A stretch of 64,000 nt of DNA from Bacillota bacterium. GTDB taxonomy: Bacteria > Bacillota > Proteinivoracia > UBA4975. Below the pieces are notes generated by a model. The model searched no databases. It saw nothing but the letters and a program-made list of their open reading frames with translations, and was not told where the DNA came from. A program made the translations under genes and the position numbers. Position 1 is the first letter of the stretch, and the number at the start of each line of letters is the position of its first letter. The stretch is from assembly GCA_012523545.1 (NCBI GenBank), contig JAAYIH010000049.1:43841-107840 (forward strand), given 5' to 3'. Shown here piece after piece: positions 6,846 through 58,620 of this stretch.

Positions 6846-6912
6846 TCCCGGCAGGATATTGGCCGGTCCGTCCAGAAATATTGCGGGAACGCTGAATTTG
6901 GGAGGCATGTGC

Positions 6913-8292
6913 ATGGATTTTTCTGCATCTAATCAAGCCTTGTGGAACCTGATGCTTCAGTTTGGAATCATGGCCGGACTGATGCTCTTTGCCAATGTCC
7001 TGCGCCGCAAGATTCCGCTTTTCCGCAAGAGCTTGCTGCCAACAGCTGTGTTGGCCGGTTTTATCGCCCTTTTTGTGAGAATGAGCGGGGCATTGCCCAT
7101 CGACGCCGGGCTGATGGAGATGGTCACTTATCATTCCATCGCCATTGGCTTCATTGCCCTCTCGTTGCAGATCCCGGACAAGAAGAAAAAAGCTGAAAGC
7201 GCCGGGCTCATTGCCGCCCGCAGCGGCGCCCTCATCGTCAGCACCTATTTGCTTCAGGGCTTGTTGGGGCTGGCTGTTTCCGTCGGGATGGCATATACCA
7301 TTATGCCGAACTTGTTTAAGGCCGCGGGCATCCTGTTGCCCATGGGTTACGGGCAGGGTCCGGGGCAGGCCAATAATGTGGGCTCGACATACGAAGCCCT
7401 GGGGTTTGCCGGCGGCCAGTCCTTTGGTCTCTCCCTGGCGGCTGCAGGCTTTCTCTGCGCTTGCACAGTGGGGGTTATTTACATCAATATCATGAAAAGG
7501 CAGGGCAAAATCGACCCGTCTGTTCTGGAACCTGCGGCCAGGCCGGTGACCGTCGCCGATTTTCAAAGTCACAATGAGATCCCCATTTCCGAATCGGTGG
7601 ACAGGCTGTCGGTGCAGTTTTCCCTGGTCATCATCGTTTATCTTGGCACCTACCTTGTTTCCCGGGGGATTACCGCTTTACTGGCGGCATACTTGCCCGG
7701 CCTGAGCGCGACACTGTCATCTTTGGTGTGGGGCTTTAACTTCATTATCGGCGCCCTGCTGGCCATTATCTGCCGCAATCTTTTTGCCTTTTTAACCCGG
7801 ACCGGGCTAATGACCCGGCAGTACCCCAACAATTACCTGCTGAGCCGGATTGCCGGGGTGGCCTTTGATTTCATGGTGCTGGCCGGAATAGCCGCCATCG
7901 ACATGAGAGACCTGGCAGGATTGTGGCTGCCCTTTGCGCTCATGGCCGTATTGGGCGGCGCCGTTACCCTGTGGTACTTGGCCTGGATTTGCAAGAAATT
8001 ATATCCGGGGTACTACTACGAGGGTATGCTGTCCATGTTCGGCATGCTGACCGGCACCATCAGCTCCGGGGTCCTTTTGTTGCGGGAAATTGACCCTTCT
8101 TTCCGGACACCTGCCGCTGTCAACCTGCTGACGGGCAGCAGCTTTGCCATCCTCTTTGGGTTGCCCATGCTGGTTTTGATTGGACTGGCGCCGCAATCCG
8201 TCGCCATGCTGTTTACGGCGATAGCCATCATGGTCGTTTATTTTGCCTTGTTGCTTTACTTCATGCTGGCGCCAAAATTGCGCAAATCGTGA
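6913..8292 (+). CDS. polytopic membrane transporter, sodium/glutamate symporter (GltS/ESS)-like
   Basis: About 12 predicted TM helices. A GYGQGPGQA segment resembles the GltS SGGHGTGAA region. ATG at 6913 is 7 nt after GGAGG. The family assignment is tentative. Confidence 0.55.
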   Translation: MDFSASNQALWNLMLQFGIMAGLMLFANVLRRKIPLFRKSLLPTAVLAGFIALFVRMSGALPIDAGLMEMVTYHSIAIGFIALSLQIPDKKKKAESAGLIAARSGALIVSTYLLQGLLGLAVSVGMAYTIMPNLFKAAGILLPMGYGQGPGQANNVGSTYEALGFAGGQSFGLSLAAAGFLCACTVGVIYINIMKRQGKIDPSVLEPAARPVTVADFQSHNEIPISESVDRLSVQFSLVIIVYLGTYLVSRGITALLAAYLPGLSATLSSLVWGFNFIIGALLAIICRNLFAFLTRTGLMTRQYPNNYLLSRIAGVAFDFMVLAGIAAIDMRDLAGLWLPFALMAVLGGAVTLWYLAWICKKLYPGYYYEGMLSMFGMLTGTISSGVLLLREIDPSFRTPAAVNLLTGSSFAILFGLPMLVLIGLAPQSVAMLFTAIAIMVVYFALLLYFMLAPKLRKS

Positions 8293-24412: not shown

Positions 24413-25351
24413 ATGACCGAAAAATTAAAAGTAGGACCTTCGCCGCACATTCTGGATTCCCGTTCGGTAAGCAGTATAATGTGGGACGTCGTGATCGCCC
24501 TGATTCCCGTTACCGCGGCGGCTATAATCTATTTCGGCCTCAATGCAGTTTTTATTTTGTTGGTCTCGACGTTGTCCGCCATGATCTTTGAATCCCTGGT
24601 GGTGCACAAAAGCCTTAAACCCAAAAAGGTGTTGGGAGACGGCAGCGCAGCTGTTACAGGACTTTTGCTGGGGTTGATTCTGCCGCCTTCGGCGCCGTTG
24701 TGGATGGCGGTGGTGGGCAGCGGTGTTGCCATCCTCCTGGCCAAGCAGGCCTTTGGGGGTATCGGCAACAACATCTTCAACCCCGCTTTGGTAGGCCGCG
24801 CCGTCTTGTTTATGTCCTGGCCGGTGTTGATGACCCGGTGGCACCAGCCCCTGGCCCTGGACAACTGGTTCGCCGACCTGGTCAGCGGCGCAACGCCCCT
24901 GGGCGCAGGGAGCGCAAGCCTTATTGACCTGGTGCTGGGCAATGTCGGTGGTTCCTTGGGCGAGACCTCGGTGGTTGCCATCCTGTTGGGCGGAATATAC
25001 CTTTTGCTCAAGGGGCACATCGACTGGCGTATCCCCGGCGGTTACATCGGCACTGCAGCAATCATTGCTTTGCTAACCAATCAGTTTTCGCTGGAAGCCG
25101 TGGCATTTCATATCTGCGCCGGCGGGTTGCTCTTTGGCGCTGTCTTTATGGCCACCGATATGGTTACGTCTCCCACCACCAAAGTGGGCCGCCTGCTCTT
25201 CGGAATCGGCTGCGGGCTGGTCACCATGTATGTGCGCGTGTTTGCCAGCGCTCCCGAGGGCGTAACCTATGCCATTTTGTTTATGAACGCGCTGGTTCCC
25301 TTAATTGACCGCTATACAGTGCCCAAAACCTTTGGGGAGGTGAAAAAATAA
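24413..25351 (+). CDS. rnfD: Rnf complex subunit D
   Basis: NqrB/RnfD-type polytopic membrane protein in rnfCDGEAB order. Confidence 0.9.
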   Translation: MTEKLKVGPSPHILDSRSVSSIMWDVVIALIPVTAAAIIYFGLNAVFILLVSTLSAMIFESLVVHKSLKPKKVLGDGSAAVTGLLLGLILPPSAPLWMAVVGSGVAILLAKQAFGGIGNNIFNPALVGRAVLFMSWPVLMTRWHQPLALDNWFADLVSGATPLGAGSASLIDLVLGNVGGSLGETSVVAILLGGIYLLLKGHIDWRIPGGYIGTAAIIALLTNQFSLEAVAFHICAGGLLFGAVFMATDMVTSPTTKVGRLLFGIGCGLVTMYVRVFASAPEGVTYAILFMNALVPLIDRYTVPKTFGEVKK

Positions 25352-27030
25352 TGAACTCATCCCTCAAGATGGTGGTGGTCCTCGGGCTTATCGCTTTTAT
25401 TTCGGCCGGATTGCTGGCCGGAGTAAACTATTGGACTGCACCCATTATTGAAGAAAATGCTCAGGCGCGCCTCAACGCAACCTTTTCCCGGGTAATTGAC
25501 GCCGATGAGTTTGTCGAGCCCGAGGAAGAGACTGAATTCTTCCTGCGCATAGCCAAAAAGGGCGGCGCAGTGGTGGGGTACGTGGTCAGGCTCACCGGCC
25601 AGGGGTACAGTTCCGCCGGTATCGACATCCTGGTGGGTTTAAACACCGAAGCGGAAGTCCAGGGGGTATATATTTTCAGCCATTCCGAGACCCCGGGTTT
25701 GGGCGACCGCATTACCGACCCGGCCTGGCTGAGCCAGTTTAAGGGCAAGGGAATCGACGACCCCATTGCTTCCGGTACAGACGTGGACGCGATTTCGGGA
25801 GCGACTTCATCATCGACGGCAGTCATCGGCAGCGTGCGCCGCGCCGTTCAGTTCGTGGGCGGATATCTGGGCCTCATTGAAGAGACAGAAATCGATTTTG
25901 CCCAGATTCCCGACGGCACTTACACCGGCACCGGGCGCGGCTTTGGCGGCGACGTGACGGTAGAAGTCACCTTTGCCAACGGCGAGCTCACCAAGGTCGT
26001 CATCGTCAGCCACAACGAAACCGCCGGTGTCTCCGACCCGGCCATAGAGGCCATTCCCAAAGCCATGGTGGCGGAGCAGAAAATTCAGGTGGATACAGTT
26101 TCCGGCGCCACCATGACCTCTGAGGCGATTATCGCCGCTGTCAAGGATGCCCTCAAGGAATTTGGCGGCGCAGGTCCTGCTGAGCCCATTGACATCGGCT
26201 CCCTGCTGCCCGGCACGTACACCGGATCGGCCAAGGGCCTGAAAGACGACATCACTGTGGAAGTGACTGTTTCCGGCGGCAGGATTACCAAAATCGTGGT
26301 TCTCAGCCACGACGATACTCCCGAATATGCCGAACCGGCCTTTGCATTTATGATTGACCAAATCATCGAGACCCAGGATTTGGAGGAGGTAGACTTCTAC
26401 AGCGGCGCTACTTTCTCCAGTGAAGGCCTGCTCAATGCCGTTAAGAACGCCCTCCGTTCCCAGGTCAAACTGGATATCTCCGGCTTGCCCGACGGCGTCT
26501 ATGTGGGCGAGGGAGAAGGTTTTCACGGCATTACCCGGGTCAGCTTCAGAATGGTTTCCGGGGAATTGAAGGATTTGGAAGTTCTGGAACACAACGATAC
26601 CCCCGAGTACGCCAACAAGGCCTTTGCAACTTTGATCCCCGCCATTACCGAGGCCCAGAGTCTGGAGGTCGACCTGGCCAGCGGAGCCACTTTCTCTTCC
26701 CAGGGCCTGCTGGACGCCATTATGGATGCCATTAAGAAGGGGCCTGTCCTGGATGTTTCCCAGGTTCCCGACGGAGTATACTCCGGCACCGGGGAAGGCC
26801 TTTTCGGCGGGCTCCAGGTGGAGGTCACCGTCAGCGGCGGCAAAATTACAGATATTGTCGTTGTCGACCACCAGGATACGCCGGAATACGCCAGCCTGGC
26901 TATCGACGGTATTACCAAGGCGATTCTGGACACCCAGTCCCTGGACGTCGACGTGGTATCCGGCGCAACAGGGACCAGCAGGGGCCTGTTGGAAGCCATT
27001 GAAGCAGCGCTCAAGAGCGCTGTGCAGTAG
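25351..27030 (+). CDS. rnfG: Rnf complex subunit G with four additional tandem FMN-binding domains
   Basis: Residues 1-175 form a canonical RnfG with flavinylation motif SGATSSS. Residues ~185-556 are four ~90-aa repeats (DG.Y.G.G.G...V.V.......SGAT.[TS]S), each a further FMN_bind domain. Confidence 0.9.
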   Translation: MNSSLKMVVVLGLIAFISAGLLAGVNYWTAPIIEENAQARLNATFSRVIDADEFVEPEEETEFFLRIAKKGGAVVGYVVRLTGQGYSSAGIDILVGLNTEAEVQGVYIFSHSETPGLGDRITDPAWLSQFKGKGIDDPIASGTDVDAISGATSSSTAVIGSVRRAVQFVGGYLGLIEETEIDFAQIPDGTYTGTGRGFGGDVTVEVTFANGELTKVVIVSHNETAGVSDPAIEAIPKAMVAEQKIQVDTVSGATMTSEAIIAAVKDALKEFGGAGPAEPIDIGSLLPGTYTGSAKGLKDDITVEVTVSGGRITKIVVLSHDDTPEYAEPAFAFMIDQIIETQDLEEVDFYSGATFSSEGLLNAVKNALRSQVKLDISGLPDGVYVGEGEGFHGITRVSFRMVSGELKDLEVLEHNDTPEYANKAFATLIPAITEAQSLEVDLASGATFSSQGLLDAIMDAIKKGPVLDVSQVPDGVYSGTGEGLFGGLQVEVTVSGGKITDIVVVDHQDTPEYASLAIDGITKAILDTQSLDVDVVSGATGTSRGLLEAIEAALKSAVQ

Positions 27031-29139: not shown

Positions 29140-29625
29140 ATGAACGTCCTGGCGCTGTTTGTCCTTATCCTTTCGGTTTTTTGGCTGGTCATTGCCGGTT
29201 TTTCGCTCCAGAGCGCAGCGGTGGGGCTAATGACAATACTGTTTGTGGTTTGGTGGAACCGGGACCTTTTGCGCACGCTGATCCGGGGCAAAGTGTCGCT
29301 GCCCGGCAAAAAGATGCTGATTTTGGCTGGCTATTTTTTCAGTCTCCTCTGGCAGATTGTGCTGGCCAACATCCAGGTGGCCAGGATCCTCCTCAGCCGG
29401 AAAATGCCCCTGCAACCTGTGGTTGTGACCTTTAACCCCGGTCTTTCCAGCGACCTGAGCAAGACGGTGCTGGCCAATTCCATTACCCTCACCCCCGGCA
29501 CCCTGACTCTGGCTGTGGAGGGCGATGAATTCACCGTTCATACCCTGACCCTTTCCGCTGCCCAGGATGTGGTGGACTGGCCGCTGATCAACCTGTTGCG
29601 CCGCCTGGAGGGGGAAAGAGAATGA
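29140..29625 (+). CDS. mnhE: Na+/H+ antiporter subunit E (MrpE/MnhE; MbhA-like)
   Basis: MnhE family. ATG is 6 nt after AAAGGAGAAGG. Confidence 0.85.
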   Translation: MNVLALFVLILSVFWLVIAGFSLQSAAVGLMTILFVVWWNRDLLRTLIRGKVSLPGKKMLILAGYFFSLLWQIVLANIQVARILLSRKMPLQPVVVTFNPGLSSDLSKTVLANSITLTPGTLTLAVEGDEFTVHTLTLSAAQDVVDWPLINLLRRLEGERE

Positions 29626-29888
29626 TGACGGAATTTTTTTTGGGGGTTTGCGTTGCTCTCATCGCCCTGACCTTTGCCTGCATGGCCCGGGCGGCTGTGG
29701 GGCCGACGGCTATGGACCGGCTGATGGCCATAAATATCATCGGCACCAAGACAGTGGCAATTATATGCGTTATCTCTCTGGTCTTTAATGAGGATTTTTT
29801 TCTGGATGTGGCCATCGTCTACGCCCTGATCAGTTTTTTGACGACCATAGCTGTGGCAAAATACCTGCAGACCGGGTCTCTGTTTTAG
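29622..29888 (+). CDS. mnhF: Na+/H+ antiporter subunit F (MrpF)
   Basis: 88 aa with 3 TM helices, MrpF-like. Start overlaps the mnhE stop. Confidence 0.85.
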   Translation: MMTEFFLGVCVALIALTFACMARAAVGPTAMDRLMAINIIGTKTVAIICVISLVFNEDFFLDVAIVYALISFLTTIAVAKYLQTGSLF

Positions 29889-29900
29889 GGGGTGAACCGG

Positions 29901-30227
29901 GTGAAGGATATCGTCGTCGTTATATTGATGGTTGCCGGCACCTTTTTCTTTGCCATGGGGACATTGGGCTTGTGGCGTTTCCCCGATGTGTTTTCCCGGG
30001 CCCACGCCTCCACCAAATGCGATACGTTGGGGTGCGGCCTGATCTTGCTGAGCATGGTTGTGCGGTCGGGATTTTCACTGGCCAGCCTTAAGATGCTGCT
30101 CATTATCGGTTTCATATGGCTGACCAATGCTACCGCCGCTCATGTCATCGGCAACACTGCCCTGAAGCAGGGCTATCCCATGCTCAAGGAAACCCGCACC
30201 TGGATATACCGGGGCAGGGGGGAATGA
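29901..30227 (+). CDS. mnhG: Na+/H+ antiporter subunit G (MrpG)
   Basis: MrpG family. GTG start follows AGGGGGTGA. Confidence 0.85.
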   Translation: MKDIVVVILMVAGTFFFAMGTLGLWRFPDVFSRAHASTKCDTLGCGLILLSMVVRSGFSLASLKMLLIIGFIWLTNATAAHVIGNTALKQGYPMLKETRTWIYRGRGE

Positions 30228-30230
30228 ACA

Positions 30231-30473
30231 GTGTTACAGGCGCTGAATGCTTTGCTGTTGCTGTTTCTGATAGTCTGTGCCGTGGTGGTGGCCCGGACCA
30301 GGGATCTGCTCAGCGCTGCCGTAATCTTTGCCGCCTATTCATTGGTTATGGCCATTATTTGGCAACAATTGAAGGCGCCTGATCTGGCCATTACCGAGGC
30401 TGCCATTGGCGCGGGGGTTACCACTGTCCTGTTGCTGGTGGTAATCAGCAAGACCGGGAGGCATGAAGAATGA
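30231..30473 (+). CDS. small MnhB/MrpA-C-terminal-related membrane protein (MbhD-like)
   Basis: 80 aa with 3 TM helices, in the position of MbhD in Mbh-type modules. Confidence 0.6.
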   Translation: MLQALNALLLLFLIVCAVVVARTRDLLSAAVIFAAYSLVMAIIWQQLKAPDLAITEAAIGAGVTTVLLLVVISKTGRHEE

Positions 30474-30754
30474 GGGTTGCCCTGACCACCGTTGTTCTGG
30501 TCGCCATTGGCGTCATATTGGTGATGATGGTTGCGGAAATGCCCGAATTTGGCGCCGGGAAACCGGCAAGCAATGAAGTATCCGCCCACTACGTGAAAAA
30601 TGCCGTTAAAGAAACGGGCGCCAGCAATTTTATTGCGGCCATTATCCTGGATTACCGCGCGTACGATACATTGGGCGAAGTAATAGTTCTTTTTGCGGGT
30701 ATTGCCGCGGTGTTGGTTGTTCTGGATGTGCACAAAGGCGGGAGAGGGCGATAA
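30470..30754 (+). CDS. small MnhB-related membrane protein (MbhE-like)
   Basis: 94 aa, hydrophobic, translationally coupled to its neighbours. Confidence 0.6.
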   Translation: MRVALTTVVLVAIGVILVMMVAEMPEFGAGKPASNEVSAHYVKNAVKETGASNFIAAIILDYRAYDTLGEVIVLFAGIAAVLVVLDVHKGGRGR

Positions 30755-30755
30755 G

Positions 30756-31193
30756 ATGCAGAGCGTCGTGCTGCAGACGGTGATAAAGCTGTTGTTGCCT
30801 TTTATCCAGGTTTATGGATTGTATATTATATTCCATGGCCACATTTCCCCCGGCGGCGGTTTTGCCGGCGGGGCGGTGATGGCCGCCAGCTTTGTGCTTT
30901 TTGCCATGAGTTATGGCGTCGGTGAAGGCTTTAAGCGCCTGCCGCGGCTGATCGCCCAGTGGCTGGAGTCCCTGGGCGGCCTGATTTACATCGCGCTGGG
31001 GCTGACGGGCATATTGCGCGGCGCTGCGTTCCTGACCAATGTGCCTGAATGGCTGGGACAAGCCGGTCAGTTGTTCAGCGCCGGGCTCATCCCTCTGCTG
31101 ACCACGGCAATCGGCTTAAAGGTGTGCAGTACCATTGTCACCCTGCTCTATCATTTGCTGGAGGAAGGTCATTATGATAGCCAAACTGATTAG
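30756..31193 (+). CDS. mnhB: Na+/H+ antiporter subunit B (MrpB)
   Basis: Conserved HGHISPGGGFAGG motif. ATG follows GGGAGAGGG. Confidence 0.8.
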   Translation: MQSVVLQTVIKLLLPFIQVYGLYIIFHGHISPGGGFAGGAVMAASFVLFAMSYGVGEGFKRLPRLIAQWLESLGGLIYIALGLTGILRGAAFLTNVPEWLGQAGQLFSAGLIPLLTTAIGLKVCSTIVTLLYHLLEEGHYDSQTD

Positions 31194-31536
31194 CAATATG
31201 CACTTTCTCACAGCCATGGTTCTCTTCCTCATCGGTTTCCATACCATGCTCACCCATTCCAATCTCATTAAGAAGGTTATGGGCATGAATATAATGGAAA
31301 CGGGTATATTTTTGTTTTTCATCTCCGTGGGCTATGTCCGGGGCGGCAGTTCGCCCATTGCTGTTCCGGGGGCAGAAGGTTATATAAATCCTCTGCCTTC
31401 GGCGCTGATCCTTACCGGCATAGTGGTCAGTGTCAGTCTTACGGCCTTCGCTCTGGCGCTGATTGTCAAACTGTATAATTATTACGGAACCGTGGATGCC
31501 GATAAGATAATGCAGCTGAGGGGAGGAGAAGAATGA
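31174..31536 (+). CDS. mnhC: Na+/H+ antiporter subunit C (MrpC, NuoK-like)
   Basis: NuoK/MrpC family. ATG is 5 nt after GGAGGAAGG. Confidence 0.85.
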   Translation: MIAKLISNMHFLTAMVLFLIGFHTMLTHSNLIKKVMGMNIMETGIFLFFISVGYVRGGSSPIAVPGAEGYINPLPSALILTGIVVSVSLTAFALALIVKLYNYYGTVDADKIMQLRGGEE

Positions 31537-33008
31537 ATCACCTTCCCGTTTTGCTGGTCGCTTTGTACCTGGCTGCGGCCCTGGGATTGCCCTTGTTGGG
31601 GCGCAACAAAAAATTCCCGGCCGGCTTGTTTGCCGTCGGAGTTGCCGGTTGCGGCCTTATCCTGGCGGCGGCGTCGGCCTGGCATGTGGCCGGGACGGGG
31701 ACATACAGTTATTTCCCCGGCGGCCACCAGGCTCCGCTGGGCATTGAAATCACCATTGATTGGGTGACGGTATTCTTGCACCTCACCATCAATCTGCTGG
31801 CCGTGCTGGTGCTTATTTACAGTACCGCCGACCTCAGCCGCGAGCTTGGAGGCGGCCGGGCCAAGACCTGGTATTATTCCCTCTTTTTCCTGCTCCTGGC
31901 CGCTTTAAACGGTATAGTAATGGCCTTTGACCTCTTCAACATTTTCGTTTTTACCGAAATTGGCACCATTGCTGCCTGCGCCCTGGTGGCCATCAGGCCC
32001 AAACGCCTGTGCGTGGAGGCCGCCTTTAAGTACCTGGTTTTGAGTGCCCTGGGCTCAGGGATGGTGTTGCTGGGAATCGGCTTGCTTTATATGGTGACGG
32101 GTTATTTGAACATAGGCGCCATGGCACAGGCGTTGCCCAAAGCCTTTGCCATGTATCCCTGGAACGTACTCGTCGCCTTGTCCCTCTTTGTAATCGGCCT
32201 GGGCACCAAGGCGGCGCTGTTTCCGTTGCATGTGTGGCTGCCCGACGCCCACTCGTCGGCGCCCACGCCGTCCAGCGCCGCTCTCTCAGGGCTGGTCATC
32301 AAGGTCTACGCCGTGGCCATGGCCAGAATTATTTTCCAGGCTTACGGCGCCGAGCTGTTTTCCCGCATTCCCGTTCCCGATGTAATTCTCGTCTTTTCCA
32401 CGGCGGGGATTTTCGCCGGTTCGGTGCTGGCCATAGGCCAAACGGACATTAAGCGAATGTTGGCTTATTCCAGCGTGGCGCAAATTGGATACATCTTTCT
32501 GGGCTTCGCCCTGGTCACCATGAACGGAATAGTGGGCGGAATCCTGCACATCTTTTGCCACGCTGTGATGAAATCCCTCTTGTTTCTTGCTGCAGGAGCA
32601 ATTATATTTAAGACAGGCATCCGCAAAATCGAAGACCTGGCCGGCATGGGTTACCGCATGCCGCTGACTATGGCGGCGTTCAGCATCGGTGCTCTGTCCA
32701 TGGTGGGGATACCGGGATTCAGCGGATTTATCAGCAAGTATTACCTGGCATTCGGCGCCCTGGCAGCTGACAGGCCAGTGTATGTAGCTGTGATACTGCT
32801 CAGCAGCCTGCTCAATGCCGTGTATTTCTTCCCCATTGTGGTGCGCGCCTTTTTTGGCCATAAGGAGAAGCAAATGACCTGGGACCGGTTGCCCTGGGCG
32901 ATGACGGTTCCCATGGTGGTTTTGGCTGCACTCACTGTTATTTTGGGCATATTGCCCGGCGGCCTGGTGCGCATTGCGGAACTGGCGGCCGGCGCATGGC
33001 TGAATTGA
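31533..33008 (+). CDS. mnhD: antiporter-like subunit MrpD (NuoN/NuoM-like)
   Basis: 491 aa proton-pumping-type subunit with the ALFPLHVWLPDAHSSAPTPSSA motif. Confidence 0.85.
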   Translation: MNHLPVLLVALYLAAALGLPLLGRNKKFPAGLFAVGVAGCGLILAAASAWHVAGTGTYSYFPGGHQAPLGIEITIDWVTVFLHLTINLLAVLVLIYSTADLSRELGGGRAKTWYYSLFFLLLAALNGIVMAFDLFNIFVFTEIGTIAACALVAIRPKRLCVEAAFKYLVLSALGSGMVLLGIGLLYMVTGYLNIGAMAQALPKAFAMYPWNVLVALSLFVIGLGTKAALFPLHVWLPDAHSSAPTPSSAALSGLVIKVYAVAMARIIFQAYGAELFSRIPVPDVILVFSTAGIFAGSVLAIGQTDIKRMLAYSSVAQIGYIFLGFALVTMNGIVGGILHIFCHAVMKSLLFLAAGAIIFKTGIRKIEDLAGMGYRMPLTMAAFSIGALSMVGIPGFSGFISKYYLAFGALAADRPVYVAVILLSSLLNAVYFFPIVVRAFFGHKEKQMTWDRLPWAMTVPMVVLAALTVILGILPGGLVRIAELAAGAWLN

Positions 33009-33025
33009 CTGGAGGCGAATGGATC

Positions 33026-34513
33026 ATGAACAGCGTTTATAATTACCTTCCCCTGTGGGCTACGCTGTTTCCCGTACTGGCTACTGTGCCCCTCTTTTTT
33101 GTTGAGCGGCGTTCCGCCAAAATACGGGACGTGTTTGCCCAGGCAGTAACGGGCATAACTTTGCTGTTAGTGGCGTTGATGTACCCCTATGTCCGCGACC
33201 ACGGGGTCATTGGCGTGTCCTACCCGGGCATACTGCCCCCTTTTGGCATATCTTTCCGGGCTGATATCCTTGGCTTTATGCTGGCCCTGATTGCTGCGGC
33301 GGTCTGGTTTTTGGCCACAGTCTATTCCAAGGTTTATATAGGGCACGAGGGGGGAGGAAACCGGTATTACCCCTTTTTGTTGCTGAGCCTGGGCGGCTGC
33401 CTGGGCGTGTTCCTCACCGGCGATTTCTTCAGCCTTTTTGTCTTTTTTGAGTTGATGTCCCTGGCCTCATACGTGCTGGTTGTCCATGAGGAGAGCGACG
33501 CCGCCATTGCGGCGGGGTACAAGTACCTGATTCTCACACTGATCGGCGGCCTCGCCCTGTTTTTTGGCATCGTCATTGCTTTCGAAGTGGCCGGCAACGT
33601 CGACATCGCGCCAGGGAATTTGTTGTTTGCCGAGCCCAATCGCCTGTCCTTTATTGCTTTTCTGGCCTTTCTGGTGGGCTTTGGGATGAAAATGGGCATA
33701 TTTCCCATGCATGTCTGGCTGCCCGACGCCCACCCCGTGGCCCCGTCGCCGGCCAGCGCCCTGTTGTCGGGCGTAATGCTCAAAACCGGTGCGTACGGAA
33801 TGATCCGGGTGGTATACAACGTATATGGTCCGGAATTGATTGCCGCTGCCGGCTGGGACACCATCCTGCTGGTCCTGGCCGGGATAACGATTTTCCTGGG
33901 CTCTGCGGTGGCTATTGCCCAGACCGACATCAAACGGCGCCTGGCCTATTCCAGCATCGGGCAAATGGGTTATGTGCTCCTGGGTATTGCCCTGCTCACT
34001 GAAAACGGCTTGACGGGCACTACTTTTCATATCTTTTCCCATGCCATGATGAAATCAACTTTGTTCCTGGCGGCGGGGGCAATCATATTCAAGACGGGTA
34101 CGCGGAAAATCAAAGAGATGGCCGGCATCGGCTTCAAAATGCCCGTTACCCTTGGCTGCTTTACTCTGGCTGCCCTGGCCATGATTGGCATACCGCCCCT
34201 CAACGGCTTTATCAGCAAGCTGATTTTGTCCATGGGCGCGCTGGATGCCGGCAAGCCTGCCTTTGTTTTCCTGCTCATCCTGAGCAGCCTGATGAACGGG
34301 ATATACTACCTGCCCATTATCATCAGCGCCTTTTTCGGCGTCAAAAAGGAAGAGCGCAAATGGAGCCGGGCTTTTTCGGAGCTCAAGCCTTCCATGTGGA
34401 TTCCCATTGCGGTTCTGGCGGCATCGTGTCTGGTCTTTGGCCTGTTGCCCATAAATCTGCCTTTGAAATGGGCGCAAATTGCTGCCAAAGCTCTGCTGGG
34501 AGCTGGTAATTGA
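33026..34513 (+). CDS. second antiporter-like subunit (MrpD/NuoM-like paralog)
   Basis: Motif IFPMHVWLPDAHPVAPSPASA. Start ATG at 33026, with 32996 as an alternative. Confidence 0.85.
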   Translation: MNSVYNYLPLWATLFPVLATVPLFFVERRSAKIRDVFAQAVTGITLLLVALMYPYVRDHGVIGVSYPGILPPFGISFRADILGFMLALIAAAVWFLATVYSKVYIGHEGGGNRYYPFLLLSLGGCLGVFLTGDFFSLFVFFELMSLASYVLVVHEESDAAIAAGYKYLILTLIGGLALFFGIVIAFEVAGNVDIAPGNLLFAEPNRLSFIAFLAFLVGFGMKMGIFPMHVWLPDAHPVAPSPASALLSGVMLKTGAYGMIRVVYNVYGPELIAAAGWDTILLVLAGITIFLGSAVAIAQTDIKRRLAYSSIGQMGYVLLGIALLTENGLTGTTFHIFSHAMMKSTLFLAAGAIIFKTGTRKIKEMAGIGFKMPVTLGCFTLAALAMIGIPPLNGFISKLILSMGALDAGKPAFVFLLILSSLMNGIYYLPIIISAFFGVKKEERKWSRAFSELKPSMWIPIAVLAASCLVFGLLPINLPLKWAQIAAKALLGAGN

Positions 34514-36786
34514 TGAGCGCTGAAGCCCTGATTCTGGCCGCCATATTAACCGCCCTGGCCGGGGGGGTAATTACCTTCCTTTTTCCCGTCCACAGCCGCA
34601 GGCTGGCGGGAATAATTAACCTGGCGGTTACAGCTCTCAGTTTTTTGCTGGTGGCCGCAGCCTGGTTTGGCTTCAGACACAGTGTGGAATTTTCCTTGCC
34701 CGGGTTTTTGTACCTGGGTTTATCCTTTCAGCTCAATGCATTAACGGCGTTTTTTGCCCTGCTCTTTGCGGGCGCCTGGGTTGCGGCATCCATTTACAGT
34801 TTGCAGTACATGGAGCACGAGGATAACCAGCGCCGGTTCTATGCATTCTTGCAACTGACTTTGGCCGGCTGCCTTGGGGTGGTCCTGGCGGCAGATTTGC
34901 TGACCCTGTTCCTCTTTTTCGAAATGATGACCTTTTGTTCCTGGGTCCTGGTCCTCCACCAGGAAAACCGGGATGCCATGGAAGCCGGCAACCTCTATCT
35001 CTACTTGGGAGTTATCGGCGGCCTGGTTCTGCTGATGGGGGTGTTTTTGCTCTATCATGCCGCCGGTTCGGTGGCGTTTGCCGCCATTCCCGGCGCTGTG
35101 GCACAAAACCCTCGACTGATGATTGCCATGGGCATCTGCTTTTTGATTGGCTTTGGCATCAAGGCCGGGATGGTCCCGCTGCATATTTGGCTGCCCAAGG
35201 CCCACCCTGTGGCGCCTACGCCTGCCAGCGCCCTCTTGTCAGGCATCATGATTAAGACTGGGGCATACGGCCTGTTGCGGGTCTTTTATTCCATACTCGC
35301 TCCGGCCGCCAATAAAGGCCTTGCGGGAGCGGTGTTCGGCGTCGTGTTTTTGTGGCTGGGCCTGCTCACCATGTTGCTGGGTGCATTCCTGGCCCTGCAG
35401 CAGCGCCAGGCCAAGCGCACTTTGGCATACAGCAGCGTCAGCCAGATAGGCTACATCATCATGGGGCTGGGGGCGGCCCTGCTCCCGGCGGGCAAGGATT
35501 TGTACGGCATATCGGGCATGCTTTTCCACATTCTCAACCACGCCGTGTTCAAAACCACTTTGTTTATGTGCGTCGGGGCAATATATGTGTACACCCATAC
35601 CCTTGAGTACGACCATTTGGGCGGTTTGGGCCGTAAGTACCCCGGGGTGCTGGTTCCCTTTGCCGTTGCCGCACTGGGCATTGCCGGCGCGCCCGGTTTT
35701 AACGGTTACGCCAGCAAGACTTTTCTCCACCATGCCTTGACCGACCTCTATCACTACCAGCCTTCGTGGTGGCTGTGGCTGGCCGAAAAGCTCTTTGTTG
35801 TGGCCAGCGCCCTGACCATATGTTACTTTATCAAGCTGTTTGTCAACCTTTTCCTCGGTGAGAAGGACTGGAGCCATCTTCCCGACCGCATGGCGCCTGC
35901 CTTGCAAATTCCCCTGTGGCTCGGCGCTGCAACTGTCGCCACCATCGGTCTCTTCCCGCACCGGGTTGTACGCGCCCTGATTATTCCCGCAATGGATGTC
36001 CTGGGCTTTGATGCCGGGGCCCTGGACTATGTTGCACATATTAACGTGTGGAACTGGCACGATGTCTGGGGAATGGCGATTACGGCGGCGGTGGCGGGGG
36101 TAATTTTGCTCCTGATTTATAAGTTTAAGATTGACTCCCTGGTTTTTCCGCGCTGGCTCAGCGTGGAAAAAATGGTCTACCGGCCGTTGGCAAGGGGCTT
36201 TATGTGGCTTTGTCTGAGGCCAGGGGTCAATGCGGACAGCATGGTCAACCGGCTTTACCACGGTGCGGGAGACTGGTCCATGGCTCTTTTCCGCCTTGTG
36301 ACCAAGGTGGATGAGACCACCGACAAGGCCTATCGCAGCGCAGGGGACTTGTCCCTGGCCCTTTTTGGCCTGGTAACCAAAGTGGACCAATCTGCCGACA
36401 TGGCCTACCGCACAATGGGCGAGTTCTTCGCCCTGGTCTGCCGTGCCGCCGGTTTTGTGGATAAAGGCACCAACAGCGCTTATGTGCTCCTGGGCAAAGG
36501 AACCAGACAGGCATGTATAAGTCTCGATCGCCTGGACCAGGACCTGGACGCATTATACAAGGGACTGGGGCTGGTATATACCCGTGCTGCCAGCAAACTG
36601 GATCTGGTGGAACGCAAAGCGTCCGGACCACTGCCCAAGAAGCGGCCGGCGCCGGACTGGCTGAAAAATTTGCAAACAGCCCTGGCCAAACCGGCCTGGA
36701 ACATTTCCAACTTGAATGTCGAAGCTATTGTGGTTGCCGGTGCTTTGCTGGTGGTGGCAATAATCCTGATATTTTACAGCCGCTGA
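34510..36786 (+). CDS. NuoL/MrpA-like antiporter subunit with about 250-aa C-terminal extension and terminal TM helix
   Basis: A NuoL-type core (motif VPLHIWLPKAHPVAPTPASA) is followed by two TM helices, then a long hydrophilic stretch with three ~20-aa repeats (..LVTKVD...D.AYR..G...A..) and a terminal TM helix. Confidence 0.85.
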   Translation: MMSAEALILAAILTALAGGVITFLFPVHSRRLAGIINLAVTALSFLLVAAAWFGFRHSVEFSLPGFLYLGLSFQLNALTAFFALLFAGAWVAASIYSLQYMEHEDNQRRFYAFLQLTLAGCLGVVLAADLLTLFLFFEMMTFCSWVLVLHQENRDAMEAGNLYLYLGVIGGLVLLMGVFLLYHAAGSVAFAAIPGAVAQNPRLMIAMGICFLIGFGIKAGMVPLHIWLPKAHPVAPTPASALLSGIMIKTGAYGLLRVFYSILAPAANKGLAGAVFGVVFLWLGLLTMLLGAFLALQQRQAKRTLAYSSVSQIGYIIMGLGAALLPAGKDLYGISGMLFHILNHAVFKTTLFMCVGAIYVYTHTLEYDHLGGLGRKYPGVLVPFAVAALGIAGAPGFNGYASKTFLHHALTDLYHYQPSWWLWLAEKLFVVASALTICYFIKLFVNLFLGEKDWSHLPDRMAPALQIPLWLGAATVATIGLFPHRVVRALIIPAMDVLGFDAGALDYVAHINVWNWHDVWGMAITAAVAGVILLLIYKFKIDSLVFPRWLSVEKMVYRPLARGFMWLCLRPGVNADSMVNRLYHGAGDWSMALFRLVTKVDETTDKAYRSAGDLSLALFGLVTKVDQSADMAYRTMGEFFALVCRAAGFVDKGTNSAYVLLGKGTRQACISLDRLDQDLDALYKGLGLVYTRAASKLDLVERKASGPLPKKRPAPDWLKNLQTALAKPAWNISNLNVEAIVVAGALLVVAIILIFYSR

Positions 36787-36816: not shown

Positions 36817-37887
36817 ATGGACTGTGCGGCAAGAAAATTATACGCGGCTGTTGCAATTTTGGCGCTGCTGCTGAGCCCGGGCTGTCTTGGGTTCCATTCC
36901 CGGCAGCAACAGCCGGCGGAGCTTAAAGAATTCAAAGAAACTGTCATTGCCATGGATACCCTGGTGACAATTGCGCTCTACGTTCCGTCGGAGGAAAAGG
37001 CGCACAAGGTGTTTTCCGAAGTAAGAAACGAATTGCAGCGGCTGGAGGGTATTCTCAGCGCCCACCAGCCCGGCAGCGACGTCATCGCAATTTCGGCAGC
37101 CGCCGGCAAGGAGCCGGTCAAGGTCAGCCCCGAAACCCTCCATGTGGTGCAGACTGCCCTGCAATACGCCCACATAACTCAAGGCGCCTTTGACATTACC
37201 GTGGCTCCAGTGTTGCGGTTGTACAATTTTGACACCAATAACCCTGTCCGGCCCTCAGTCCGGGAGTTGGAGCGCACGCTGCCCCTGGTGGACTGGCGCA
37301 AAGTGCATGTTGATGAGGCTCAAAGGACGGTGTTTCTGTCCGCTGAAGGAATGGAACTCGATTTGGGCGGAGTTGCCAAGGGTTATATCACCGACGCTGC
37401 AGCCGAAATCTTGCTAAAAAACGGCGTTGAATTTGGTTCCGTCAACGCCGGCGGCGACATCCGCCTGCTGGGTCCCAAGCCCGACGGCAACCCCTGGCGC
37501 GTGGGGATAAAAGATCCGGTCAACCCCGGTGCCAATAACTGGTTTGCCATTGTGGAAGTCAGGGGCGGCGCCCTGGTCACATCCGGGGATTACGAGCGAG
37601 CTTTTGTGGAGGACGGTGTACGCTGGCATCACATCATCGATCCAGCCAGCGGCCTGCCTGCCAGTGGGGCCAGCAGCGTCACCGTACTGGCGCCCACAGC
37701 CGAAATTGCGGATATATTATCCACCGCTCTCTTTGTTCTGGGGCCGGAAAAGGGGTTGGAGCTGGTGGAGTCTTTGCCTGAAACAGAGGCTCTCATTTGG
37801 GCCCGGGGCGAAGTTTTCTGGTCCTCCGGCCTGATTCCCCAAGAGGGGCGAGGAGATGTATTTTATTTTACCGTTAAGGACAAATAG
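36817..37887 (+). CDS. apbE: FAD:protein FMN transferase ApbE (lipoprotein)
   Basis: ApbE family. Lipobox LSPGC places it outside the cytoplasm. Confidence 0.9.
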   Translation: MDCAARKLYAAVAILALLLSPGCLGFHSRQQQPAELKEFKETVIAMDTLVTIALYVPSEEKAHKVFSEVRNELQRLEGILSAHQPGSDVIAISAAAGKEPVKVSPETLHVVQTALQYAHITQGAFDITVAPVLRLYNFDTNNPVRPSVRELERTLPLVDWRKVHVDEAQRTVFLSAEGMELDLGGVAKGYITDAAAEILLKNGVEFGSVNAGGDIRLLGPKPDGNPWRVGIKDPVNPGANNWFAIVEVRGGALVTSGDYERAFVEDGVRWHHIIDPASGLPASGASSVTVLAPTAEIADILSTALFVLGPEKGLELVESLPETEALIWARGEVFWSSGLIPQEGRGDVFYFTVKDK

Positions 37888-37895
37888 CCTTACAG

Positions 37896-38279
37896 TTGGG
37901 AGTGCTGCCCGTGCGTCGGGGAGATAAGGTTATCGCGTTAATTTTGACTGCCGTTGTCCTGGCAGGGATATACATGTATTTTTTGCGCCCTCCCGCCACC
38001 GAAGCTTTGATCGTCATCAACGTCGACGGGGAGGATCTGTATACTTTTACCCTGTATCAAAAGGGCAGGGACGAAATTATCGAAGTGGAGGGCGTGCTGG
38101 GTATCACCAAAGTGCACCTGCAGGACGGGCGCGTACGGGTGATAGAGTCGGCCTGCCCGGATAAAATTTGCGTGCATACAGGCTGGACCAATAATCCGGC
38201 CAAACCCATTGCCTGCTTGCCCAACCGGGTGGTGGTGAAGGTGTTTGGCCAGCCTGAGGATGGAGTTGATCTGCAATAG
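37896..38279 (+). CDS. NusG domain II-containing (DUF1312) membrane-anchored protein
   Basis: N-terminal TM helix plus a NusG_II-like beta domain. This family is typically linked to ApbE and Gx transporters. Confidence 0.65.
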   Translation: MGVLPVRRGDKVIALILTAVVLAGIYMYFLRPPATEALIVINVDGEDLYTFTLYQKGRDEIIEVEGVLGITKVHLQDGRVRVIESACPDKICVHTGWTNNPAKPIACLPNRVVVKVFGQPEDGVDLQ

Positions 38280-38317
38280 AAAAGGTAAATTTCAAAGCAT
38301 ATTGGACAGGCAATTCT

Positions 38318-38821
38318 GTGCGTTTGCTGGTAATAACCGCCATGTTCATCACCATGGCCACCATTCTGCATATCATTGAAGGGCTGTTGCCGCCGATTCC
38401 CGTCACTGGCGCCAAACTGGGGCTGGCGAATATTATCACCGTTGCAGCCATTTTTTTGTTGGGGCCCAGGATGGCGCTGGCTGTCGCAGTGGGCAGGACG
38501 CTGCTGGGTTTCCTGTTCAGCGCATCGGCAGTGGGCTTTGCCATGAGCTTCTCCGGCGCCGTTCTCAGTTGGGCAGTGATGTCTTTGCTCTTCCAACTGG
38601 CCCGGCATTCCTTTAGCTTAATCGGCATCAGTTTGGCCGGCGCTGTGGCCCATAATATCGCCCAGCTTACCGTTGCCAGTTTCGTCCTGGAAAATATTTC
38701 TACTTTTACTTTGTTGCCGCTTTTAATGTTTTTTGCCGTTCCCACTGGTATAATGGTAGGAGCGGCGTCGGGGTTTTTGATTCGCGTTTTGGAACGTATT
38801 TCCAAAGGGGAAAAAAGGTGA
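38318..38821 (+). CDS. Gx transporter family membrane protein (heptaprenyl diphosphate synthase component I-like)
   Basis: 167 aa with about 5 TM helices and a glycine-rich motif. It is the usual partner of ApbE and NusG_II. Confidence 0.65.
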   Translation: MRLLVITAMFITMATILHIIEGLLPPIPVTGAKLGLANIITVAAIFLLGPRMALAVAVGRTLLGFLFSASAVGFAMSFSGAVLSWAVMSLLFQLARHSFSLIGISLAGAVAHNIAQLTVASFVLENISTFTLLPLLMFFAVPTGIMVGAASGFLIRVLERISKGEKR

Positions 38822-55737: not shown

Positions 55738-55881
55738 AGTGTCACCATCCCTGATTCAGTAAGTATTGTTTGCATAAGTATATATAATGTTGTCAATGCC
55801 GACAAACGATAAAATCAGGCGTGGCAGGGCGACAGCCTGTCCCGGCTTGTTTTATGTTAACTATACGGCATGTTGGCTTAA

Positions 55882-56460
<579 letters not shown>

Positions 56461-56466
56461 AGCACT

Positions 56467-58620
56467 ATGCTTGGCGGGCTGCTTTTTGGTTTGACGGCGG
56501 GAATCCTCTGTGCTGACCTGTTCCCCCGTGTCGCATTCACCGGCCTGGCACTGGCCGCTGGCATCTGTATGTTTCGGCGCGCTCCCCGGTTGCTCATCGT
56601 CTTTGCCTGTTTTTTTTGCCTGGGCTTTGCCCTGACCGTTTTGCGCTTTAATATGTTGCCCAAACCGGTCTATGGCGAAGAAATAACTGTGACTGTTGCC
56701 AGCCGCCGGCTGACGAAGCAAGGCGACGGGTATTGTGCGTGGCAGGGGACCATTATAGAGCCTCGTCAACTGGCCGGCGCAACGGTGCAGGTTTATGCCG
56801 ATACCTACCGGCCGGGGACCTATACCTTGTCCGGGCCGCTGTTGCCGCCTGTCGAGTACAGAAACCCCGGGCAGGGCTGGCATTACAAGCGGAAAATATG
56901 CGCAAATGAAATCGGCATACTGCGCTGGCCCCGGGTAATTCATTTTGCCGGGCATGTCCCCGGAGTATTGAGCAGGGTGCGCGCATCTTTTCGGGACAAT
57001 GTACAGGCCAACCTGGGAGACAGGGACAGTGCAGCTCTGGCTCTGGCCATTGTATTGGGAGATCGCAGCCTCTTGCCGGAATCGCTGGGCAGCGCATTGT
57101 ATCGCACCGGGGTTGGCCATATTATGGCTTTGTCCGGTTTGCACGTCAGTATTTTGGCAGGTATAATTATGACATTATTAAGGATTGCAGGCCTGCCCCG
57201 CCCGTGGGCTGTTGCCCTGTGTGCGGTTCTGCTCATTTTGTTTGTTATTTTCGCAGGGCCTTCGCCCTCACTTCTCCGGGCGGTTTTGATGTATTTTTAC
57301 GGCGCCATCGCCGTTTTTGCCGGGCGTGAGCGGCAAGGCCTGACCGCCTTGCTGTGGACGGCGGCGGCAATGTTGCTGTTCAATCCGCTTTGGCTGTTTG
57401 ATTATGCCTTTGTCTATTCCTTTTGGGCTACCTTCATTTGTTTGACTTTGGGCGATCGCCTGGAGAAGCACCTGGGCTTTTTGCCTGAAAAGGTTGCAAA
57501 AATAGCCTCCCTGTCTGTGCTCATTCAGCTGACAGCTTTGCCCCTGAACGTTTACCTTTTTGGGCAGGTCGCGCTGTGGAGTCCCCTGGCCAACATTGTG
57601 ATAATCCCTTTGCTGCCGGTATTGGCAGGCCTGGCCATGTTGGCGGGACTGCCTGGCCCGGTCGGCGCCGCAACTGCCTTGCCGGGCAAGCTGCTTTTTA
57701 AGGGTACTGCTGAGTTTTTTCTGTTGCTCAACCAATTCCCCCTGGTCCTCGAGGTCGGAGGATTGCACATGCTCTTGCTTGCCGGCTTGAGCGTTTCGGT
57801 TTTGGTTTGGCTGCGGACCGGAAACAGAAGGTACCTGGTGCTGTGCATGGCCGGTTTGCTGGCGGTATACTCGTTGCTTTGCGCCGTCGACAGCCAGGTT
57901 TGCCGTGCCTGGTTCCTGGATGTGGGCCAGGGCGATGCCATACTCATCCGTCAGCAGGGCAAATGGATACTGGTGGATTGCGGGGATGCCCGGGCCGGGG
58001 AAAGCGCTGTGGTGCCGACGCTAAAATTCCTCGGCGTAAGACAAATTGACGCCCTAATCATTTCCCACCCCCATGCCGACCACTGCGGAGGGTTGGAGGC
58101 ATTAGCTGCCGCAATTCGGGTAGACAAGGTCTTCGTCAACAGTTGTTTTGTTGACTCACCCTGGCATGAACTGTTTCCCCGGGCGGAAGTGGTCAGGACT
58201 CCCCGGGTGGCTGGACCCGGAATCACAGTACTGCCTCCCGTTGCCGGAACTGCCGGCCTCAATGACAATTCGCTGCTGGTCTCGGTGCGCAGGAACGGCA
58301 TTGGCATTTTGTGTACCGGAGACATCGAAGAGGTCGGCGAGCTGTTGCATTTGTCCCATCTGACGCCGCACAGCATTTTGAAAGTACCCCACCACGGCAG
58401 TGATTCCTCGACCTCTGCCCGTTTACTGGCTCAAACTCAGCCCCGGGCAGCCGTCGTCAGCTGCGGCCCGGCCAACAAATTCGGTTTTCCCAAACCGGCA
58501 GTGCTGGAGCGGCTGGAGGCCCATGGGATTGATATCTATCGAACCGATACAGCAGGTTGCGTGCAGGCAATTATTTGGCCCTGGTCCGAATTTACAATAC
58601 ATACTTTTGCGGGGAGATAA
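56467..58620 (+). CDS. comEC: DNA internalization competence protein ComEC/Rec2
   Basis: Polytopic competence domain plus a C-terminal metallo-beta-lactamase domain (HPHADHCGG). Confidence 0.9.
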   Translation: MLGGLLFGLTAGILCADLFPRVAFTGLALAAGICMFRRAPRLLIVFACFFCLGFALTVLRFNMLPKPVYGEEITVTVASRRLTKQGDGYCAWQGTIIEPRQLAGATVQVYADTYRPGTYTLSGPLLPPVEYRNPGQGWHYKRKICANEIGILRWPRVIHFAGHVPGVLSRVRASFRDNVQANLGDRDSAALALAIVLGDRSLLPESLGSALYRTGVGHIMALSGLHVSILAGIIMTLLRIAGLPRPWAVALCAVLLILFVIFAGPSPSLLRAVLMYFYGAIAVFAGRERQGLTALLWTAAAMLLFNPLWLFDYAFVYSFWATFICLTLGDRLEKHLGFLPEKVAKIASLSVLIQLTALPLNVYLFGQVALWSPLANIVIIPLLPVLAGLAMLAGLPGPVGAATALPGKLLFKGTAEFFLLLNQFPLVLEVGGLHMLLLAGLSVSVLVWLRTGNRRYLVLCMAGLLAVYSLLCAVDSQVCRAWFLDVGQGDAILIRQQGKWILVDCGDARAGESAVVPTLKFLGVRQIDALIISHPHADHCGGLEALAAAIRVDKVFVNSCFVDSPWHELFPRAEVVRTPRVAGPGITVLPPVAGTAGLNDNSLLVSVRRNGIGILCTGDIEEVGELLHLSHLTPHSILKVPHHGSDSSTSARLLAQTQPRAAVVSCGPANKFGFPKPAVLERLEAHGIDIYRTDTAGCVQAIIWPWSEFTIHTFAGR

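Follow-up and report, generated by a model that had tools for sequence, protein, structure and literature searches.

The question raised by this locus is what three genes for ApbE, NusG_II and Gx proteins contribute at the end of an rnf-mrp block, and whether they serve specifically the five-FMN RnfG encoded in the same row. In the window, by which we mean the whole 64,000-nucleotide stretch of Bacillota DNA analyzed here, open reading frame coordinates and Pfam matches place the three genes on the forward strand as a tightly spaced trio at positions 36817 to 38821 (Table 1). The same families have been studied as FmnB, EetA and EetB by Rivera-Lugo et al. (2023, mBio, PMC9973259), and the trio is a known bacterial kit with which FAD is moved outward and FMN is attached to membrane respiratory proteins, so that its presence beside Rnf is a correct call but an ordinary one. 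We consider it likely that the trio acts here as a module that supplies flavin cofactor to extracytosolic flavoproteins and attaches it to them, its substrates being RnfG, with five sites, and RnfD, with one. The module is a general one that stands beside ordinary Clostridia Rnf operons, and not a specialization for the five-FMN RnfG.

Profile searches upheld all three family assignments of the first-pass annotation, with every match far above the Pfam gathering score. Enzymes of the ApbE/FmnB class transfer FMN from FAD to threonine in a Mg2+-dependent reaction. The ApbE of the window matched PF02424 over the full profile (positions 1 to 266 of 266; E=3.6e-86, 289.4 bits against a cut-off of 25.6), and its closest solved structure is 7esa (E=8.5e-54), with which it has the stretches LDLGGVAKGY, TSGDYER, HHIIDP..G and AD.LSTA in common. 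The N terminus, MDCAARKLYAAVAILALLLSPGC, consists of a signal peptide or hydrophobic segment followed by LSPGC, whose lipobox Cys aligns with the canonical SLSGC, VLCGC and VLSGC of relatives. The Pro at position -2 of this lipobox is atypical, and a lipobox-like site is found in 22 of the 34 neighboring ApbEs. Based on this lipoprotein signal, the enzyme is predicted to be extracytosolic.

The second protein matched PF07009 (E=1.6e-28, 99.4 bits against a cut-off of 29.6) and none of the NCBIfam models. Its longest open reading frame (37896 to 38279) opens with TTG at 37896 and encodes 127 amino acids, but the GTG at 37911 (122 amino acids) is the more likely start, since the gene call of a 99%-identical database protein (P0001) begins there; a GGGAG sequence lies 8 nt 5' of this GTG. 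The AlphaFold model (mean pLDDT, 91.3) consists of a helix at residues 8 to 29 followed by strands, and its best fold matches are 4obi, 4esn and 3ld7, all DUF1312 structures, along with domain II of Aquifex NusG. The N-terminal helix is present in 162 of 170 homologues, and C87, C92 and C107 occur together in 166 of 171; one further protein, P0272, is a fusion of EetB and EetA. An identity as the NusG transcription factor was rejected, given that the NusG_II domain is the sole Pfam match of a protein of only 127 amino acids.

The third protein matched PF07456 (Hpre_diP_synt_I; E=3.7e-39, 134.5 bits against a cut-off of 30), as did all 120 of 120 among the matches listed for its 344 homologues. 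This family name, together with JGI labels on homologues, would make it component I of heptaprenyl diphosphate synthase, acting in menaquinone side-chain synthesis. However, the AlphaFold model (mean pLDDT, 92.3) is a membrane protein of six helices whose nearest relatives are ECF S components and not a soluble prenyl-synthase subunit: the top five Foldseek matches are all RibU (including 3p5n, 5kbw, 5kc0 and 5kc4; TM, 0.57 to 0.72), with ThiT among the other ECF S components that rank next. Besides PF07456 there is a weak match to the ECF_trnsprt profile, while NCBIfam gave only a subthreshold match to a folate ECF-S model. Moreover, the window genes include no polyprenyl synthase that could act as its partner, NCBI now names PF07456 members "Gx transporter family protein," and a member of the family binds FAD (PMC9973259). 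The ECF-S-type membrane fold and the absent synthase partner effectively refute the synthase identity, which we regard as extremely improbable, and the gene labeled "heptaprenyl diphosphate synthase component I" appears to be a misnamed, putative EetB-type FAD exporter subunit. What RibU and other ECF S components (3p5n, 5kbw and 5kc0) have in common with Gx is the six-helix fold. Sequence identity is just 17 to 21%, the motifs E21, G-A-K-L-G-L-A-N and H-N-x-x-Q are peculiar to the EetB family, and the transport direction proposed for that family is export. The earlier suggestion of a putative flavin transporter fits both the proximity of the model to RibU and the role of Listeria EetB as a FAD exporter.

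Table 1. Coordinates of the flavinylation module and of its predicted substrates in the window
Feature	Coordinates	Strand	Evidence
rnfD; product of 312 aa with T161 (SGAT) as its single predicted flavinylation site	24413..25351	+	PF03116, TIGR01946, motif
rnfG; product of 559 aa with five FMN-binding domains and predicted flavinylation sites T152, T254, T354, T447, T540	25351..27030	+	PF04205, TIGR01947, motifs
apbE/fmnB-type FAD:protein FMN transferase of 356 aa, predicted to be a lipoprotein (Cys23)	36817..37887	+	PF02424, structure relatives, lipobox
eetA-type NusG_II/DUF1312 protein, N-terminal membrane helix and beta-barrel with Cys triad	37911..38279	+	PF07009, AlphaFold, fold matches
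eetB-type "Gx transporter" of 167 aa; ECF-S-like membrane protein with six helices, putative subunit of a FAD exporter	38318..38821	+	PF07456, AlphaFold, Foldseek

The predicted substrates are encoded upstream in the same row. RnfG contains five stretches matching PF04205 (E=9.4e-80), with TIGR01947 (rnfG) spanning its N-terminal 170 amino acids, and RnfD matched PF03116 (E=1.9e-112) and TIGR01946 (309 bits against a cut-off of 207). D-x-x-SGAT flavinylation motifs occur five times in RnfG and once in RnfD (DLVSGAT, residues 155 to 161) and in no other protein of the window, in line with the first-pass annotation, which counted five sites for RnfG and a single one for RnfD. We infer that these two proteins are the ApbE substrates in this organism; further substrates could be encoded elsewhere in the genome. 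The trio had also been described as lying directly downstream of RnfG, whereas ∼9.8 kb and 13 genes (rnfE, rnfA, rnfB and ten mrp genes) separate the two.

ApbE, EetA and EetB each occur once in the window, and the order apbE-eetA-eetB runs straight into maf-radC-mreBCD, with the ATG of maf at 38827 directly 3' of Gx. Gaps are short throughout: 30 nt from mrp to apbE, 8 to 23 nt from apbE to NusG_II, 38 nt from NusG_II to Gx and 5 nt from Gx to maf. A promoter and terminator scan placed no terminator-like site in any of these four gaps and yielded no usable operon boundary near the trio. As the gaps are short and free of terminator-like sites, we infer that the trio is cotranscribed with rnf-mrp and maf. 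No Rfam family matched in the window, which thus lacks an FMN riboswitch, and it contains no tRNA. The same gene order is found in relatives down to ∼55% identity, and synteny is kept in Proteinivorax too. Given this recurrence, and given that 54 of 80 species-level loci have NusG_II as the gene immediately 5' of Gx, the arrangement is not due to chance.

The best-studied counterpart is that of Listeria monocytogenes, where FmnB, EetA and EetB belong to the same families (PF02424, PF07009 and PF07456, the labels used for FmnB, EetA and EetB in Data Set S1 of PMC9973259, with PF07456 as the eetB marker) and are mutually adjacent, as they are here. Their assignment there bears out the proposed tie of the trio to extracytosolic flavinylation. 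Both modules combine a lipoprotein ApbE, a RibU-like ECF-S EetB and a single-pass NusG_II EetA. In Listeria, EetB is described as resembling ECF S components and as exporting FAD for use by ApbE; it pulls down FAD, and deletion of eetB abolishes flavinylation of PplA, while deletion of eetA gave no phenotype (PMC9973259). The Listeria module lies beside the Ndh2/PplA/Dmk genes of extracellular electron transfer, whereas that of the window lies beside Rnf, and the presumed substrates differ accordingly, being PplA in the former and RnfG (with five sites) and RnfD in the latter. Listeria-type Ndh2, DmkA/DmkB, PplA and FmnA are absent from the window genes; the locus is Rnf associated and not an extracellular electron transfer locus.

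By analogy, Gx/EetB may act as an ECF S-type subunit that binds FAD in the cytosol and hands it over on the outer side of the membrane. There, the lipoprotein ApbE is predicted to transfer FMN from FAD onto the Thr of each D-x-x-S-G-A-T motif with release of AMP, and NusG_II/EetA, a single-pass protein with a small outward beta-barrel, would be a putative accessory partner of EetB. For this scheme, our analysis provides the family assignments, the folds, the motifs and a gene order that recurs across species; that EetB binds and exports FAD, and that flavinylation depends on EetB, is taken from published work on the Listeria homologues. Unlike Listeria, the window has no dedicated ECF-T (FmnA) nearby. 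Since neither ECF-T (CbiQ-type) nor ECF-A genes are found among the window genes scanned, the energizing partner is assumed and not seen, and Gx/EetB would most likely be partnered by an ECF-T/ECF-A/A' module encoded elsewhere in the genome. In the published survey, ECF-T was colocalized with eetB in 291 of 4,214 genomes and ECF-A/A' in 796 of 4,214 (PMC9973259).

The first-pass annotation had gone further and suggested that the multi-FMN RnfG has a dedicated maturation system. Such a system would have evolved together with this RnfG and would provide extra FAD and transferase capacity for the six sites of each complex. Several observations agree with this: the lineage has the trio after the rnf-mrp block together with a five-domain RnfG, RnfG and RnfD are the sole motif-bearing proteins of the window, and Proteinivorax, with an RnfG of 485 amino acids, also has ApbE-NusG_II-Gx after rnf. 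However, the co-occurrence survey, which comprised 80 species-level loci anchored on Gx and covers only loci holding Gx, argues against a dedicated role. Among the RnfG proteins near Gx, 21 of 24 have a single FMN domain, as counted by profile matches and not by the motif pattern (D..[ST]GA[ST] undercounts sites in single-domain RnfG, e.g., ALTGAT in Sporomusa), and NusG_II and Gx are adjacent in 17 of these 21. ApbE adjacency was found in 4 of 8 loci with multi-FMN RnfG versus 5 of 21 with single-FMN RnfG, showing no enrichment (Fisher p=0.21). Three sister-lineage loci with a four-domain RnfG (L007, L010 and L011) keep NusG_II-Gx but lack ApbE at that position, and in a locus with a multi-FMN RnfD-G fusion (L092) no member of the trio occurs within 10 kb. 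Furthermore, the published neighborhoods of eetB in 4,214 genomes (eetA in 3,328, apbE in 2,169 and Rnf in 572 Clostridia genomes) come without mention of multi-FMN RnfG (PMC9973259). We therefore consider a dedicated role unlikely.

The same survey bears on whether Gx and NusG_II are tied to Rnf at all. They could instead form an ECF-S importer for a flavin or another vitamin, or serve an envelope function with maf-radC-mreBCD, with ApbE merely adjacent. Gx has the fold of importer S components such as RibU, the gap between Gx and maf is the 5 nt given above, maf lies directly 3' of Gx in 28 of the 80 loci, and four loci (L031, L061, L063 and L081) carry NusG_II-Gx-Maf-RadC-MreB without an Rnf gene within 10 kb upstream. 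Given this linkage to maf-radC-mreB in loci without a nearby Rnf, part of the NusG_II-Gx association may be inherited gene order. However, 20 of the 80 loci have ApbE at most 3.5 kb from Gx and 27 have Rnf, the pair is linked to apbE and Rnf across thousands of genomes (PMC9973259), and Listeria EetB cannot replace RibU in uptake but is required for flavinylation (PMC9973259). A role untied to Rnf thus seems very unlikely, and we retain the general flavin supply and attachment module as our reading.

In Rnf-associated clusters of Clostridia, too, NusG_II-Gx comes after the rnf operon, and ApbE may be present or absent; the order is seen in loci of Halanaerobium, Sporomusa, Dendrosporobacter and Marinisporobacter. 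What sets the window lineage apart from them is the ten-gene Mrp-type block between rnfB and apbE and the five FMN domains of its RnfG, where theirs has one. RnfG proteins with several FMN_bind domains, each bearing the ApbE motif as in the window RnfG, appear in the sections of Meheust et al. (2021, eLife, PMC8238504) on multi-flavinylated RnfG as a class that might offer a second extracytosolic electron path. Within those sections this class is not tied to EetA/EetB or Mrp, and our counts likewise show no specific link to the trio. A literature search gave almost nothing on ApbE together with NusG_II/DUF1312 or the Gx transporter, the connection being made through lmo2639 (DUF1312) and from there to PMC9973259; it turned up no publication that assigns lmo numbers to eetA and eetB and nothing specific on rnf-mrp gene clusters.

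A bolder proposal would give EetA more than a dispensable part, its near-invariant, extracytosolic Cys triad being a site of redox chemistry or metal binding through which FAD passes from EetB to ApbE, and would see the module, in lineages like that of the window, as the tail of an rnf-mrp operon, with cofactor supply matched to a six-flavin Rnf whose five-FMN RnfG serves as an extracytosolic electron wire. We think this improbable.

The result mainly clears a false lead. Given that the module is a published and widespread companion of Rnf in Clostridia, the trio says little about the five-FMN RnfG or the rnf-mrp block. It also yields a clean annotation, by which "heptaprenyl diphosphate synthase component I" becomes a putative EetB-type FAD exporter subunit. 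Finally, a single row of genes is predicted to encode both a six-site set of flavinylation substrates and the genes for cofactor supply, a convenient set for the heterologous reconstitution of a multi-flavinylated RnfG.

Three consecutive genes, encoding an ApbE (FmnB-type), a NusG_II (EetA-type) and a Gx (EetB-type) protein, close the rnf-mrp block, and Pfam matches uphold all three family assignments made in the first-pass annotation. Homologues of the third protein carry the NCBI name “Gx transporter family protein.” Exactly these families were investigated in Listeria by Rivera-Lugo et al. 2023 (PMC9973259), whose Data Set S1 equates NusG_II (PF07009) with EetA and ApbE with FmnB, so that the description of the trio as a signature of extracytosolic flavinylation is right and already published. 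In that work, the ApbE-type enzyme FmnB depended on EetB (marker PF07456) to flavinylate PplA; EetB also bound FAD and had an ECF-S-like model near RibU; FAD export by EetB with FmnA (an ECF-T) and EcfA/A' was proposed, and a clean eetA deletion gave no extracellular electron transfer phenotype (PMC9973259). Among 4,214 eetB genomes, the gene colocalized with eetA in 3,328, with apbE in 2,169, with ECF-T in 291 and with ECF-A/A' in 796; colocalization with Rnf was found in 572 genomes of Clostridia, and EetA-EetB fusions in 14 genomes (PMC9973259).

Features of the trio and its surroundings in the window
Feature	Position	Strand	Description
ORF	6859-8292	+	477 aa; no Pfam match
valS	13748-16351		no T-box ahead of it (Rfam scan, 64-kb window)
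rnfG	25351-27030	+	559 aa; five PF04205 stretches; five D-x-x-SGAT motifs
Ten Mrp-type genes	29140-36786	+	MnhE, MrpF, MnhG, MbhD, MbhE, MnhB, MrpC, three MrpD-like
Third MrpD-like gene	34510-36786	+	758 aa; Proton_antipo_M match ends at residue 416
ApbE, PF02424	36817-37887	+	356 aa; E=3.6e-86, whole profile
NusG_II, PF07009 (formerly DUF1312)	37896-38279	+	127 aa; E=1.6e-28
Probable NusG_II start	37911	+	GTG; 122 aa
Gx, Hpre_diP_synt_I, PF07456	38318-38821	+	167 aa; E=3.7e-39; also a weak ECF_trnsprt match
maf start	38827		ATG
ORF	55861-57144	-	427 aa; no Pfam match

The catalytic domain of ApbE aligns over its full length with solved FAD:protein FMN transferases, the best being 7esa (E=8.5e-54), with which it has the stretches LDLGGVAKGY, TSGDYER, HHIIDP..G and AD.LSTA in common; TM1553 and the 4ifu/4xdt series are further relatives. 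Its hydrophobic, signal-like N terminus ends in LSPGC, the cysteine of which lies in a canonical lipobox in its relatives (SLSGC, VLCGC, VLSGC), and 22 of 34 neighboring ApbE proteins have a lipobox-type site. The AlphaFold model of Gx (pLDDT 92.3) comprises six helices and matches best the riboflavin-binding RibU S components 3p5n, 5kbw, 5kc0 and 5kc4 (TM 0.57 to 0.72), with ThiT and other ECF S components ranking next. For NusG_II, the model (pLDDT 91.3) shows a small beta-barrel preceded by a single N-terminal helix, and it matches structural-genomics entries for DUF1312 (4obi, 4esn and 3ld7/2kpp) as well as Aquifex NusG domain II. On this domain, predicted to face outward, sits a triad of cysteines (C87, C92 and C107, in S-x-C-P-D-K-I-C ... 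C-L-P-N-R) present in 166 of 171 homologues; in Listeria innocua, the Lin0431 structure has neither of the first two. A database homologue, P0272, fuses PF07456 to a following PF07009; this fusion supports a physical association of EetA and EetB and puts the NusG_II domain after a seventh membrane helix, hence outside the cell. The cysteine triad, like the rnf-mrp block with its multi-FMN RnfG, is a side issue to the main finding.

The NusG_II gene probably starts at the internal GTG, in agreement with a database protein of 99% identity and the start called for it; GGGAG lies 8 nt upstream. From the last mrp gene through maf the gaps are 30, 8 to 23, 38 and 5 nt, a terminator scan of this stretch found no terminator-like site, and we infer that the genes are cotranscribed. 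Upstream, the order is Rex, an aspartase/fumarase-type lyase, rnfC, rnfD, rnfG, rnfE, rnfA, rnfB and the Mrp-type genes, which directly separate rnfB from apbE without an obvious terminator; downstream follow maf, radC, mreBCD, PBP2, rodA and others. The placement immediately after RnfG given in the first annotation does not hold: although the trio closes the rnf-mrp block, about 9.8 kb and 13 genes separate it from rnfG. The rnf-mrp row recurs in relatives and in Anaerobranca gottschalkii (fetched loci L005, L006, L008, L009 and L089), and Proteinivorax has it without mrp; we came across no published account of a fused block like this when we searched the literature. The third MrpD-like protein (722 to 757 aa in relatives) carries, past its Pfam domain, a long C-terminal extension (the last about 240 aa) with apparent internal repeats (…LFRLVTKVDETTDKAYRS… / …LFGLVTKVDQSADMAYRT…).

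Five FMN sites on RnfG and one on RnfD had been proposed, and the domain stretches and motifs bear this out: the predicted target threonines of RnfG (152, 254, 354, 447 and 540) each lie in their own FMN_bind domain, and RnfD has a single flavinylation motif (T161). When the window was scanned in six frames with profiles and motifs, there was no further FMN-binding domain, flavinylation motif, ApbE, NusG_II or Gx. RnfG homologues cluster at lengths near 557, 469 and 365 to 375 aa, fusions of RnfD with RnfG (about 765 aa) also occur, and multi-flavinylated RnfG is a class already described by Meheust et al. 2021 (PMC8238504). No Rfam family reached the gathering score in the 64-kb window, hence no FMN riboswitch; the window also has no tRNA genes, no ECF-T or ECF-A among the genes scanned, and none of the Listeria-type electron transfer genes Ndh2, PplA, Dmk and FmnA. 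The minus-strand ORF overlaps a ComEC-type gene on the opposite strand and may be spurious.

The trio had further been read as a maturation system dedicated to this five-FMN RnfG. Close relatives (NusG_II identity 51 to 67%) keep the order Rnf-Mrp-ApbE-NusG_II-Gx-Maf-RadC-MreBCD. Across 80 species-level GTDB loci, fetched by Gx alignment and annotated by means of profiles derived from proteins of the window, NusG_II lies immediately upstream of Gx in 54, ApbE within 3.5 kb of Gx in 20, the full trio in 10, Rnf core genes in 27, and Maf immediately downstream of Gx in 28. Twenty-four RnfG proteins were seen whole in these loci: 21 have one FMN domain, two have four and one has two. Halanaerobium, Sporomusa, Dendrosporobacter, Marinisporobacter and others combine a single-domain RnfG (about 186 to 200 aa) with the order rnfCDGEAB-NusG_II-Gx-maf-radC-mreB. 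NusG_II-Gx runs straight into maf-radC-mreB in many Clostridia, among them loci in which the 10 kb upstream contain no Rnf (L031, L061, L063 and L081), a linkage that could reflect inherited gene order or a functional tie to cell-envelope genes. In a Halobacteroidaceae MAG (L040), an Rnf operon encoding an RnfG with two FMN domains is followed by the trio in the order NusG_II-ApbE-Gx. A Symbiobacterium MAG (L064) has MrpD-like genes, NusG_II-Gx and then a 525-aa protein that has four FMN_bind domains as well as four SGAT motifs, with no Rnf core gene on the 8.6-kb contig.

A second approach located loci from RnfG homologues, that is, from the multi-FMN side. Proteinivorax has the order Rnf (RnfG of 485 aa)-MOSC-ApbE-NusG_II-Gx-DUF4321-Maf, and Anaerobranca Rnf (RnfG of 463 aa)-Mrp-MOSC, where the fetched locus stops. 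None of the trio genes is present at a locus with an RnfD-G fusion, nor at that of an FMN protein with three domains that is not part of an Rnf operon. Loci of sister lineages with four-domain RnfG (L007, L010 and L011) keep NusG_II-Gx with no ApbE between mrp and NusG_II; in place of the complete Mrp complement they have only two MrpD-like genes, and their RnfB is short (the L007 gene call gives 98 aa). ApbE adjoins 4 of 8 verified multi-FMN Rnf loci versus 5 of 21 single-FMN loci (Fisher p=0.21, in a small and phylogenetically non-independent sample). A dedicated system is not borne out by these counts. The observation itself is confirmed and its interpretation partly supported: the trio belongs to a published kind and is a general Rnf companion, not a device peculiar to five-FMN RnfG.

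Most likely, the EetB-type Gx protein, with an ECF energizing module that we infer to be shared and encoded elsewhere, would bring FAD from the cytosol to the membrane's outer face, an export role carried over from the Listeria work. The lipoprotein ApbE would then most likely transfer FMN to six threonine sites of RnfG and RnfD, its presumed substrates, with EetA most likely associating with EetB.
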